From: a virus
Lineage: Duplodnaviria > Caudoviricetes
Virus record (IMG/VR): IMGVR_UViG_3300031555_003590
Coordinates: 1-64,000 of that record
Reading direction: 5' to 3' (one strand)
DNA length: 64,000 nucleotides
Shown here piece by piece: positions 24,984 to 47,162 of the stretch. A program made the position numbers and the translations under genes. Under the pieces are notes generated by a model. It did no database searches, had not been told where the DNA came from, and saw only the letters and a list, made by a program, of their open reading frames with translations. Within the stretch, counting starts at the first letter, position 1, and each line of letters opens with the position of its first letter.

Positions 24984-27900
24984 TTATGTATCAATTAAAG
25001 AGGAATCAATTTTATACGCAGACATCATAGATTTACGTCCCTTCATATCTTCAGGTGTAGATCCCCTTAATAATTGGAATATTTTCATATCATTCTCAAT
25101 ATCAGAAATATTTACTCTAATTAACATACGAGTATTTGGTTCCATAATTGTAGTCCTAATATCATCTGCATCGTTCTCGCCTACATTACCTTCACACTAG
25201 TTCGCAACACTAGTGCAGTTCTCAGATACTATTCAATATCATGAACTTCTCTAGTTCTCACTAGATGCTGAGACTATATCTTATTTATCATTATGATAAA
25301 TATTAACCGCTTCGATTTAAGGGATTCTCACCCACCTGCATTAGCTTCAGGTCCTACTCCTATTGTTATACTATACTAGTATAACCTACGGGATAGTCGT
25401 TGAACTATATTCTATATTATGCAACTTTATTTTTTATACGTAATTTTGGTCGACGCTTATTAAAGACATCATATTTCAATGATAATTTTTTATATTTTGG
25501 ACTCATATATACAATCTTTGATAATGTTCTAATAGGAATATCAGTCATTTTAGATATTTTATCATATGATAAATCTTTATCAGTTAATAATTTGGCTGCT
25601 TCTTCTAATTTCTCAATTGGAAATTCTTCTTGAATAGCAGGTGGAATTATATTATAATCTTTAGCAATATGACTCCATGAACGACCTGTTCTTATTGAAT
25701 ATAATATAGATCTATTGATACCAGTTTCTCTTTCAATATCAATTAACCTAATATTAGGATCTTGACACATTTCACAGGCTTGTCTAATTTGTTCCTCAGT
25801 ATAAACATTTTCTGGATGATTGATTCCTTTAAAACTCATAAGTCCAAATTTTCTAGCATGTTCTTTATTTTCATCAGCAGTGCACCATTCCAGATTACCT
25901 ACCCAATTAAATTTAGGATTACCATTTAAATGGTTTACTTCTGGTTTATTCTCTGGATTAGGAATAAATGCTTCTGCAACTGCTCTATGAACACTAATAT
26001 GAAATGATTTTCCATTAAGATATCCATTTACACGCATACGACCAGTATTACTTACTTCTTGTTTAATAATTTCTCCACGTTTTCCAATAATTTCACCAGT
26101 ATTACTAACTAGATATCCAGTAGTTATACCTTTATGAATCACAGATCTCCATTCAGGATTAGCTAGATCATGAATATATCTATCCAGTTTTAATACTTCT
26201 TCAAATGTTAATTCAGATTCTGGAATTTTAAATAATTCCATAGATCTTTGATCTCGCATTTCTTGAATGGCTTCATTAAGAAGTTTCTTATCCAATAAAA
26301 TAACCTCCTTTCCATTATATTTGCTAATGGTAAGGTAATTAATTTTTGCATAATATAGAATCTTAGCTGCTGATTATCCAATCTCTAATCTTTTTACCAT
26401 ACCTGAATAATTAGTTCAGCCACTAGTTATATCACTATACTAGTTTGGTAATTAGAGCTCTAAGGAACTTCCAGCAATTCAATTAATAAGGCCTAGAGTT
26501 AAGCCTTTGAATCGGTGAGAAATAGTAGGTTGATATTTCTTTAAAATTTTTAGTACACCCAACATTGATAAATTATGTTCAGTACCAGTTTTAATATCCT
26601 TTAATACAAATGATTCTACTTTTGGAAATCCCCATTTACCTAGTATACAAATTAAATCTGATGCTTTCCTGAGTAATGATTCTGATACTTCAATTAGCTG
26701 CATCTTAGCATCAATAACACCTTTTATCAATTTATCTTTTTGATCATAATACATCTCAGGAAATTCTTCACCAATTCTATTTTGGATATAATTAATATTT
26801 TTATGGAATATTTCTACATACTTACTACTATTATTAGTATCAATATTATCATTATCAGAATTATATGCAATAGCTGCAAACTCTTCTAATATAATTTCTA
26901 ATAATCTATCATTAATTTTATAATGATCTACTAATAATTTGATACTATCTACATAGTTACTAGTAGAAGATAAGAATTCAATCCATTGGGTTTTATTTAG
27001 ATATTCAATTTCATCTTCATTATTATATCCTAATTTATAATCTTTACTAACTGCTTTTACATATCGATTGATATAATCTTCTTTATTAATAACGAATGGA
27101 TCCTTTTTATCATCAACACGATATAGAGGAGGTTCAGCTATAAATAATCTACCATCTTGAATAATTTCTGGATATAATTTAAAGAAGAAAGCCATGAGTA
27201 AACTGCGTATAAAGAGTCCATCAACCAATTGTGTTCACATTAGATTGCAAGTCTAATGCAGTTCTCTTATGAACTTCCCTATATTTCTATAGGAGTTCAG
27301 ACTATATCATCACTAATATCATTAGTGTCTCCTATTTCCAGTTACCATACTACTATTCCGTTTGTAGTATCCCTCATTAGCTTAGGGTGTACTCTACTAA
27401 CTACATATATATGTAGTGGTTCGATAGTCGTTGAACTTTCTATTTTAACGGAGAGTAAGTTAAAATAGTTTAGCTGCTGATTGTCCCAATGGGAGTTCCC
27501 AGCAATTAAAGAGATTTTAAGCGGACATTGAATTTTTATCCGCATCAGATGCAATAATTATTTTATTATATTGCAATTTACTAAGATCAAATTTACTTCC
27601 AACATTACATCCCATAATAGTAATAAGATCAGTAAATTCTTTATTACCTTTAGGGCCTACAATCTGATCTAATGTCATCTTGAAAACATTTGCACTGACA
27701 CCCCTTATTGCATAGAGTGCTTGGAATTTAGGATCTCTTGCTTGTTTTAAAGAGCCTTTGGCGCTATCTCCCTCAATTATATAGAGCTCTTTATATTCTT
27801 TCAATCCTTTGTTAGTACAAGGATCATAGTTTTTCATCTTATAAGATGACCAGTTAGTTAGAGCACCTTTAACAACTGCTGATTTTACTTTATCCCCTTC

Positions 27901-45294: not shown

Positions 45295-45300
45295 ATGTTT

Positions 45301-45450
45301 AAAAGGATTCACCGTGGGCTACTCACACATAGTTCTGTCGGTTAGTGTTACCGACGTACTATTATATGTTTTCACCTTTAGTATATAGGCTCACTACTTC
45401 CTATATACCCAGGGGCACGGCTACTCTACTCCCTGTAAATTAAACATATA
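45301..45450 (-). ncRNA. Unidentified ~150-nt structured RNA with possible pseudoknots
   Basis: TATATGTTT/AAACATATA, CAGGG/CCCTG, GTATATAGG/CCTATATAC and GTCGGT/ACCGAC stems; loop CCGTG pairs with 3' CACGG. Confidence 0.6.
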
Positions 45451-45746: not shown

Positions 45747-45751
45747 ATATA

Positions 45752-46118
45752 AAGTACAGACAGATCAACATTTTACACACTAACCTAGTCCTAAGACTGC
45801 TAGTACCTCTCCAAACAATTATTGCTTTCCACGCCTCAAATGTTGATGTGACTCTGCCTGATATTTACTCTGAGCAGTCACTACCCAGTTGTCAACCCCC
45901 ACTTAATCCTGCCTATTCTAGGTATCGATGTGATTGACTGCTTATGCCTTTAAGCATCGGATATCCTACTTCACCCATTTCAGATAATCCGCATAGCCTC
46001 CTACTTGGCTCTTATAGGCTTGATTTGCATTTTTTGAATAGAGTGCTACTCCCACACGTTCCCATCTCTATTACTGTAGTCAGTAATCCAGCCAGGATAT
46101 ATCATTTCACCTGGACTT
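45752..46118 (-). ncRNA. Unidentified ~370-nt highly structured RNA
   Basis: GC-enriched, no ORF in the track, about 10 complementary stems including crossing pairs (see findings). Confidence 0.65.
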
Positions 46119-46120
46119 AA

Positions 46121-46461
46121 TGGTGCGGGTAGCCGGACTCGAACCGGCATGGATTACTCCGAGAGATTTTCATCACACTCTTGGTTATGAATTCCCAAGC
46201 CAATTCAAAGAATTGTTGTGCGCTGGAATACGTTTTTACCATATCATTCCTGACTTAGGTAGTAGGTCTATATTCTCTACACATTTATCAAATTATTTCT
46301 AATTTGAATTTAGCACGGCGTTCCCATTGAGCCATTCACCGTTTTAGCCTACTCCACTTATAAAGTTTCCTTCATAAGGCTCCACCTTTACTCAAGGCAA
46401 CTTACTATAGCAAGTTCTCAATGGAGAAGTCTCTTGTGTCTGCCAATTTCACCATACCCGC
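46121..46461 (-). tRNA. trnL: tRNA-Leu(TAA), intron-split; exons 46461..46427 and 46170..46121 (85 nt mature)
   Basis: GCGGGTATGGTGAAATTGGCAGACACAAGAGACTT^AAAATCTCTCGGAGTAATCCATGCCGGTTCGAGTCCGGCTACCCGCACCA. Confidence 0.93.
46171..46426 (-). mobile_element. Group I intron (256 nt, trnL/IC3-like) in the Leu anticodon, U^AA
   Basis: P1 CTT/GAG with U.G; P2 CTTATGAAG-GAAA-CTTTATAAG; P3 AGTAGG/CCTACT; P7 GAATA/TATTC; terminal G at 46171. Confidence 0.88.
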
Positions 46462-46471
46462 ATATTATATA

Positions 46472-46975
46472 TCAAATATATTTAAAATAAGTTTTCTCAA
46501 TTTTTTGTGCAGGAATTTTATCTATTTTATTATTTTGAATAGATGCACCATATTTACCTGCACATTCTTTACTACAGAAATGAGGTTTATTTCTATTTCG
46601 TTTATCAGTTTGAGCTTTAGTTGGAGTAAACATCTTACCACATATCGGACATTTAATATCTTTAACTTCAACTCTAATTGCATCATTTTTGGTATGTTCT
46701 TTACGAGGTTGGATATCTAAATTATGAGGCAAATTATTAACTACATTCCAATCTTTATGATGAATGGTATCAGTATCTTTTATAAGTTTATTTATTTCAA
46801 TCTCTTTTAACGCTTTTGGGTAAGAAATTGTTTTTGTCTTACCTTTTATATTTTTTGATTTAGATGAGTCATTTAAAACTATATGTAATCTACCATCATC
46901 TCTTAGATATGGACCGTAAACTTTATCATATTCTGAATATAATTTCAGAATAGGACTTAAATCTTTATTATCCAT
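46472..46975 (-). CDS. Free-standing HNH endonuclease with C-terminal Zn finger
   Basis: IHHKDWNVVNNLPHNL......EH; CPICG...FCSKEC. Confidence 0.85.
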   Translation of the reverse strand: MDNKDLSPILKLYSEYDKVYGPYLRDDGRLHIVLNDSSKSKNIKGKTKTISYPKALKEIEINKLIKDTDTIHHKDWNVVNNLPHNLDIQPRKEHTKNDAIRVEVKDIKCPICGKMFTPTKAQTDKRNRNKPHFCSKECAGKYGASIQNNKIDKIPAQKIEKTYFKYI

Positions 46976-47010
46976 ATTATTAAAACCTCCAATATATTAA
47001 GATGAAATAG

Positions 47011-47038
47011 CTGTGTCTGCCAATTCCACCACACCGGC
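47011..47038 (-). pseudogene. Orphan 5' half of a tRNA-Leu
   Basis: GCCGGTGTGGTGGAATTGGCAGACACAG versus the intact exon GCGGGTATGGTGAAATTGGCAGACACAA (24/28 identical). Confidence 0.8.
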
Positions 47039-47162
47039 AGATAAATGGCACTAACGTAGTTCCCACGGCTCTTTTTTCACCCTTCTTTATATAAAGTTAG
47101 GATGCCTCTCGCACTAGCTGTGCTAAGGTTTTAAGAATACTATATAGTATTCTTATTGCAAT

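Follow-up and report, generated by a model that had tools for sequence, protein, structure and literature searches.

The virus record to which this locus belongs is 292 kb long with a GC content of 28%, and the window analysed here, 64 kb of DNA, is its first part. The window encodes a PhuZ-like tubulin and a primase that, among cultured phages, is most similar to those of AR9/PBS1-like jumbo phages (~30% identity), and identical DNA is contained in animal faecal metagenomes. When the whole genome was scanned with ARAGORN, five tRNA genes were predicted, all on the minus strand at 45.2–47.2 kb. Read along that strand, the order is tRNA(CAU), a spacer, an orphan piece of a tRNA-Leu gene, a 36-nt spacer, an HNH ORF, 10 nt and a tRNA-Leu(UAA) gene. 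The features of this part of the array are as follows:

47012–47038, minus strand: orphaned 5' fragment of an earlier tRNA-Leu gene, covering the 5' acceptor strand and the D arm; 24/27 identity to the real exon
46976–47011, minus strand: AT-rich spacer with a Shine-Dalgarno-like site at 46986–46990, read directly from the sequence
46472–46975, minus strand: free-standing HNH endonuclease gene, 167 aa (PHROG match, alignment and structure model)
46427–46461, minus strand: 5' exon of tRNA-Leu(UAA), 35 nt, ending at U34 and keeping the common D-loop core
46171–46426, minus strand: group I intron of 256 nt without an ORF, inserted between U34 and A35
46121–46170, minus strand: 3' exon of tRNA-Leu(UAA), with encoded CCA

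As the initial annotation had it, an intron-bearing tRNA-Leu lies downstream of the HNH gene, and it can now be specified as tRNA-Leu(UAA), interrupted after U34 by a group I intron that has no ORF. Joining 46427–46461 to 46121–46170 yields an 85-nt tRNA-Leu(UAA) whose 3' exon forms 7/7 Watson–Crick acceptor pairs with the present 5' exon and fails to do so with the orphan. The gene (46121–46461) is the sole Leu tRNA gene of the genome and reads its commonest Leu codon, TTA, which accounts for 57% of Leu codons (3067/5337). ARAGORN calls it as a tRNA-Phe, having placed the junction one base off, and so misses or mis-calls the only Leu tRNA of this genome.

All group I helices tested in the intron (P1–P9) pair by coordinates; a U-G pair is present at the 5' splice site, the intron ends in G, and P7, which contains the G-binding pair, differs from that of related introns by paired changes. 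The fold z-score of the intron is −2.6. A search with Rfam model RF00028 did not detect it; a profile made from four trnL introns (L014, L022, L008 and L027 in the family survey below, three of which exceed the RF00028 cut-off) matched it with 42.6 bits (E = 1.9e-12), the match being missed with default filters and found with filters off. Compared with six trnL introns it gave z-scores of 3.0–7.8, versus at most 2.7 with the genome's own introns, and because of these scores we assign it to a trnL lineage rather than to the other group I introns of this phage. Its splicing is predicted to restore the tRNA. The genome is otherwise rich in introns: RF00028 has three matches above its cut-off, in addition to several of lower score; group I intron matches lie at 27277–27547 and 25249–25390 of the window (both minus strand) and at 106217, 110551, 189483 and other positions of the genome.

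The HNH gene is located outside any intron or intein, its end 10 nt from the 5' exon of the tRNA. Its product matches the PHROG HNH endonucleases (phrog_14913, E = 1.2e-11) and consists of an I-HmuI-like N-terminal sheet, an HNH core (H72–H73, N85, H94) and a C-terminal four-cysteine zinc finger (C109, C112, C134, C138) that resembles YacG. H73 and N85 are invariant in the 55 aligned sequences and H94 is kept in 51; residue 72 is H in the window's protein and D in most family members. Judged from these residues, the HNH (beta-beta-alpha metal) active site is intact. The structure model (pLDDT 95.5) has I-HmuI (1u3e) as its top fold match (Z = 7.2, 87 aligned residues, rmsd 3.6), and Foldseek also ranks 1u3e first (E = 0.024), so that the predicted similarity of fold is modest. 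In its active site, its fold with a separate DNA-binding domain and its position outside introns and inteins, the gene corresponds to a free-standing HNH homing endonuclease of the Mob/I-HmuI type.

The orphan (47012–47038) is identical at 24/27 positions to nt 1–27 of the real 5' exon (46435–46461), a match for which the chance expectation in a 292-kb genome is ~2e-7, and it is the only second copy of the exon start genome-wide. The earlier observations that the HNH gene is bracketed by two copies of the Leu 5' half, and that the upstream copy breaks off at the start of the anticodon stem, both hold: the similarity ends there. Matches of the orphan to phage sequences in BLAST are tRNA-Leu genes wherever they are annotated, and a similar stump is present in ~25 loci of the family. 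The orphan would be the stump of a recipient trnL. Its acceptor strand meets the present 3' exon with a C-C mismatch at pair 3, which makes it unlikely that the 3' exon derives from the old gene; no old 3' stump was found within 170 nt downstream of the window's tRNA-Leu. Two other roles considered for the orphan were rejected: as a promoter its matches are at chance level (10 found versus 12 expected), and as a hairpin over the ribosome-binding site its fold is not significant (z = −0.95).

Several neighbouring segments, all on the minus strand, were also examined. Directly after the tRNA-Leu lie ~370 nt (45747–46119) with no long ORF, a GC content above that of the genome, a fold z-score of −0.7 and no match in Rfam, which could possibly be an unknown non-coding RNA. 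Two tRNA spacers, 45300–45440 and 47045–47130, are structured (z = −2.6 and −1.75) and have short words in common; they gave no Rfam match either and are possible small RNAs or ribozymes. The segment 45040–45112 is degenerate and tRNA-like, being called by ARAGORN at a relaxed threshold and scoring 19.5 bits with the Rfam tRNA model, below the cut-off.

Searches with the HNH protein identified 65 close homologues and 208 cluster representatives at E = 1e-30 or better. Genomic context was drawn from part of these 208, in viral, metagenome, genome and cultured-phage collections, and was tallied by hand over 40 non-redundant loci, some of them related to one another; L001 and L002, which match through the zinc finger only, were excluded. 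A Leu tRNA gene or fragments of one adjoin the HNH gene in 39/40 loci, and the gene concerned is trnL(UAA) in 35/40. Among background viral trnL(UAA) genes, picked by pattern, 2/105 have a family-like ORF within 800 nt, and the one directly adjacent case (L064) has the layout stump, HNH, new gene, stump. The HNH family is tied to trnL(UAA) across its loci, the new tRNA gene being found on either side of the HNH gene.

In 27 of the 40 loci the adjoining trnL(UAA) is intron-less. Seven have an intron, inserted after U34 in this window, L014 and L029 and after approximately nt 26 in L008, L009, L017 and L027. As for other arrangements, the HNH gene lies within trnL(UAA) in L041, and L018 is cut by the contig end; in L022 its neighbour is trnL(UAG), beyond which lies a trnL(UAA) that bears an intron. 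A decayed tRNA is found in L021, only an orphan in L173 and no tRNA in L025, a long-branch outlier. The background set was selected with an intron-less anticodon pattern and thus yields no background rate for introns. Within the family the intron is optional, given 27 intron-less against 7 intron-bearing neighbours. The initial annotation had proposed a survey of HNH–intron co-occurrence, and regular pairing is not what that survey returned; for this reason we do not file these genes as a collaborative-homing family. The HNH proteins of L014 and L036 are 84% identical and yet differ in intron state, and the nearest relatives of the window's HNH by identity or tree (L005, L006 and L039) all adjoin an intron-less trnL.

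Individual loci of the survey merit separate mention. The introns at approximately nt 26 are group I introns at the end of the D arm (L008:3018–3331, L009:3007–3336, L027:2998–3300, and L017 at a contig end), three of them over the RF00028 cut-off; to our knowledge, no intron at this point of trnL(UAA), outside the anticodon, has been reported. In L041 (288–922) the HNH gene follows immediately after U34 of trnL(UAA), with a short inverted repeat around it and no room for a ribozyme core, so that either the tRNA is disrupted or the insert is an intervening sequence of an unusual kind. L029 (2498–3666) has a truncated free-standing HNH gene followed by a trnL whose U34 intron contains an ORF with an HNH-like motif (by eye), a possible case of endonuclease turnover. 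A tRNA with a CUA anticodon lies directly 3' of the HNH gene in L006 (3506–3580) and L184 (1994–2068), and amber recoding is possible in these phages. The tRNA region of L014 (3910–3990) has a match resembling the Twister-sister ribozyme (31.7 bits versus a gathering score of 34). The only match from the genome collection, L033, comes from an archaeal metagenome-assembled genome; the contig that carries it, 72 kb in length, may be a viral one within the bin.

Cultured members of the family have close relatives that lack the insertion. Seunavirus SPLA5a possesses an intact, intron-less trnL(UAA) and no HNH gene. Phage R7 is identical to it at 148/150 positions upstream, its orphan is exactly the first 29 nt of the SPLA5a trnL, and then the HNH gene follows, with a new whole trnL(UAA) that is only 57% identical to that of SPLA5a. 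The supposition that half of an old trnL is left behind is thus borne out directly in these phages, and the R7 stump and the window's orphan end at the same point, where the anticodon stem begins. In Klebsiella phages KP13-16 and KP2025, compared with FBKp34, FKP3 and phi1_175008, the tRNA gene has been exchanged as a whole and no orphan remains. R7 and KP13-16 belong to different subfamilies; their cassette tRNAs share 78% identity with one another versus 57–66% with the empty alleles, a pattern suggesting that the enzyme travels with its tRNA. The two HNH proteins are 59% identical.

Both ends of the old gene are retained in 10 loci, with 7/7 acceptor pairing between them in 8, and the anticodon loop is where nine of the 3' stumps begin. 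Because these ten loci flank the new gene with both old ends, we conclude that the gene is replaced as a whole; in four of them (L008, L009, L014 and L027) the new gene bears an intron. The breakpoints are bracketed by the two intron positions seen, after approximately nt 26 and after U34. The idea of an invading unit made of the HNH gene and new tRNA sequence therefore stands, whereas its restriction to a 5' exon plus intron does not. For the window, the loss of the old 3' half and the mismatch between orphan and 3' exon at pair 3 agree with whole-gene replacement.

HNH-less relatives with an uninterrupted trnL, which the initial annotation had proposed to look for, exist for cultured family members (SPLA5a, FBKp34); for the phage of the window none was found. 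An exact DNA search of viral contigs with the orphan or the exon start gave 0 matches, a search for relatives through neighbouring genes gave none, and matches in cultured phages were at the tRNA level only. Four faecal DNA runs (searched as contigs only, and probably from one campaign) contained identical pieces across the locus and no HNH-less joined contig of this phage; the joints listed in faecal contigs look like tRNAs and introns of other organisms. No RNA data set was listed among those containing the locus, which says nothing about its expression. Since the empty allele of the window's phage was not found in these searches, the history of its locus is read from that of its relatives. 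Two further cultured phages were observed in the course of the comparison. At the site that the cassette occupies in KP13-16, Klebsiella phage KP13-26 (L052:718–1207) carries a different HNH-like ORF together with a third allele of trnL(UAA), an instance of competing cassettes at one locus. In Salmonella phage NINP13076 (L046:1030–1241) the HNH gene is internally deleted with orphan and replacement tRNA still present, as expected for decay after fixation.

The D loops of the replacement genes were compared through a core defined as nt 18–24 of the window's exon, with either pyrimidine allowed at the third place. This core occurs in 57/104 background viral trnL alleles and in 0/22 intron-less cassette alleles (P = 4e-7 versus background; P = 6e-4 once alleles are collapsed to 11 types). 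It was again absent from four loci fetched later (0/4, one of them related to an earlier locus), making 0/26 in total. By comparison, 5/7 intron-bearing cassette alleles have it, the window's included (P = 2e-4), these five cases corresponding to approximately two independent events, the window and the related nt-26 group. The stumps are not enriched for the core relative to background (9/21, P = 0.35), and the empty alleles of the Seunavirus and Klebsiella phages are without it; the target therefore includes more than the core, or the specificity has drifted along the tree. The simplest reading of this pattern would be a DNA target extending from the D loop to the anticodon loop, with two ways of escaping it, a change of sequence or an intron. 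An RNA target is argued against, since splicing would restore the core.

The linkage to trnL(UAA), the stumps of old genes, the empty alleles in close relatives of cultured members and the altered D loops of intron-less alleles can be accommodated in one explanation. We consider it probable that these loci are mobile cassettes composed of a free-standing HNH nickase and a complete replacement tRNA-Leu(UAA) gene, the window's locus being one member. The enzyme would recognise trnL(UAA) DNA across the D loop, the anticodon loop and the sequence between them, and nick it near positions 27–34. In a founding event, repair would insert the cassette at the break by illegitimate joining, with stumps remaining; later spread would proceed by ordinary homing via shared flanks among co-infecting relatives. 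HNH homing enzymes nick DNA and promote gene conversion in mixed infections (PMC2988022), and disruption of a homing site by an intron has precedent (PMC3984707). The phage would retain a working tRNA because the cassette supplies a copy that its own enzyme does not cut, and this replacement may matter to the window's phage, in which TTA makes up 57% of Leu codons. Most members would escape through sequence change in the D arm. The window's member keeps the common sequence, and its escape would most likely be via the intron, which splits the site and whose splicing would restore the tRNA.

Given the cassette model, the chances that the intron is the shield of the window's allele appear a little better than even. 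The alternative that survives best accepts the cassette and differs on the intron's role only: the donor trnL would have carried the intron or gained it later, with immunity residing elsewhere, for example in the anticodon stem. It would account for an intron of a trnL lineage that was not recruited from this phage's other introns, and for the intron-less trnL beside the nearest HNH relatives (L005, L006, L039). In addition, the introns of L014 and L029 may be passengers, as both of these alleles are without the core. The association of core and intron (5/7 versus 0/26 alleles) speaks against it, and we regard it as possible, at less than even chance.

Strict collaborative homing, as the initial annotation envisaged for the locus, would move the HNH gene, a replacement 5' exon and the ORF-less intron as one unit, use the 3' exon of the recipient and need the intron as a shield. 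It is attractive for the window, where the exon keeps the common core and, over nt 8–27, forms with the orphan the closest old/new pair seen (19/20), and where the intron is located at the point at which 3' stumps begin; the seven loci with an HNH gene beside an intron-bearing trnL also agree with it. As a rule for the family it fails, the HNH gene being routinely found beside an intron-less trnL (27 loci versus 7, and the L014/L036 pair); moreover, the intron-bearing L008, L009, L014 and L027 are whole new genes between old ends, and the window's orphan mismatches the present 3' exon. In this strict form we judge it improbable. Within the broader cut-and-replace strategy suggested by the replacement genes, collaborative homing is plausible as a special case, and would be at most one of two modes of immunity.

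Equally improbable in our estimate is that the HNH protein is a tRNA-cutting RNase toxin with the unusual tRNA-Leu as antidote, on the model of the tRNA-cleaving Septu, an HNH-nuclease defence system that cleaves tRNA-Tyr (PMC13096335). The replacement alleles are indeed unusual and the codon they serve is frequent (TTA, 57% of Leu codons in the window's genome), but splicing would regenerate a mature tRNA with the core, so that the intron would give no protection, and the DNA insertion scars at the anticodon arm together with the I-HmuI-like DNA-nickase layout point to a DNA target. tRNA genes are common sites of integration and recombination. That the fragments arose by duplication of an attachment site, or are debris of generic recombination within a tRNA array, with an incidental HNH gene whose target is elsewhere, would fit this and the frequent presence of HNH genes in phage tRNA clusters (T5 F-TflI/II, cited in PMC2330249), but is very unlikely considering that one isoacceptor is concerned in 35/40 loci from unrelated phages, that the unit is <1 kb and comprises only HNH and tRNA with no integrase match among the flanking ORFs examined, and that presence and absence are clean against the empty alleles.

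Parts of the proposed cassette strategy recall known systems. T4 SegB is likewise a free-standing endonuclease in a phage tRNA array, where it cuts inside tRNA genes and co-converts neighbouring tRNAs; it differs in being a GIY-YIG enzyme that breaks both strands of many tRNA genes at the universal T-loop motif (PMC2330249). The present family has HNH and zinc-finger domains and is tied to one isoacceptor, and whereas SegB can cut the tRNAs of its own genome, here an apparently resistant copy is carried along with stumps of the old gene. I-HmuI and the T4 HNH nickases MobA and MobE share the HNH core and N-terminal fold (PMC2988022, PDB 1u3e). Intronless homing enzymes are also free-standing and absent from close relatives (PMC2988022), but they cut hundreds to thousands of bases away, while the genes described here sit at the break and displace their target. 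Collaborative homing is known from introns of T3/T7-like DNA polymerase and cyanophage psbA genes with adjacent free-standing endonucleases (PMC10448857, PMC3984707); an ORF-less group I intron lying by such an endonuclease and splitting its presumed target is shared with the window, the difference being that in the HNH family the target is a tRNA gene, a whole gene is carried and most members are intron-less. A parallel to the replacement itself may be drawn with fungal mitochondrial endonuclease genes, which insert at the target gene, supply an altered replacement and leave a displaced remnant, with replacement C-termini carried in Allomyces atp6, Ophiostoma rps3 and Phlebia atp6/cox2; those are LAGLIDADG or GIY-YIG enzymes acting on protein-coding targets in organelles, and the replacement is partial (PMC4019555). 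Literature searches of incomplete coverage yielded no description of an HNH/trnL(UAA) cassette family, which thus apparently is undescribed.

The window's intron shares its host gene, core layout and lack of an ORF with the cyanobacterial and plastid trnL(UAA) group I intron (RF00028), which is inserted at the same point, after U34. It differs in belonging to a jumbo phage, in being too divergent for RF00028, in having ~40 extra nt near its 5' end and in having an external HNH gene alongside. Unusual phage tRNA sequences are often explained as an escape from tRNA-cutting defences of the host. The cassettes suggest a second possible cause, namely escape from a DNA endonuclease of the phage itself or of a rival; for tRNA cutting by host defence, one such conflict has been shown (PMC13096335). 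Collaborative homing would be extended to tRNA genes, and a route is suggested by which tRNA introns without an ORF could still spread. Among cultured phages, pairs that differ in the presence of the cassette are available (R7 or PVP-SE1 versus SPLA5a; KP13-16 versus FBKp34). To the fuller proposition, that a widespread family of phage homing endonucleases attacks a single tRNA gene and replaces it whole with a self-immune copy, shielded either by D-loop divergence or by an intron recruited at one of two positions, we would give an even chance. If it is true, L029 and L041 would represent stages in the making, or in the loss, of a mobile tRNA intron, and endonuclease conflict between phages would directly drive both odd tRNA-Leu alleles and the spread of introns into tRNA genes.
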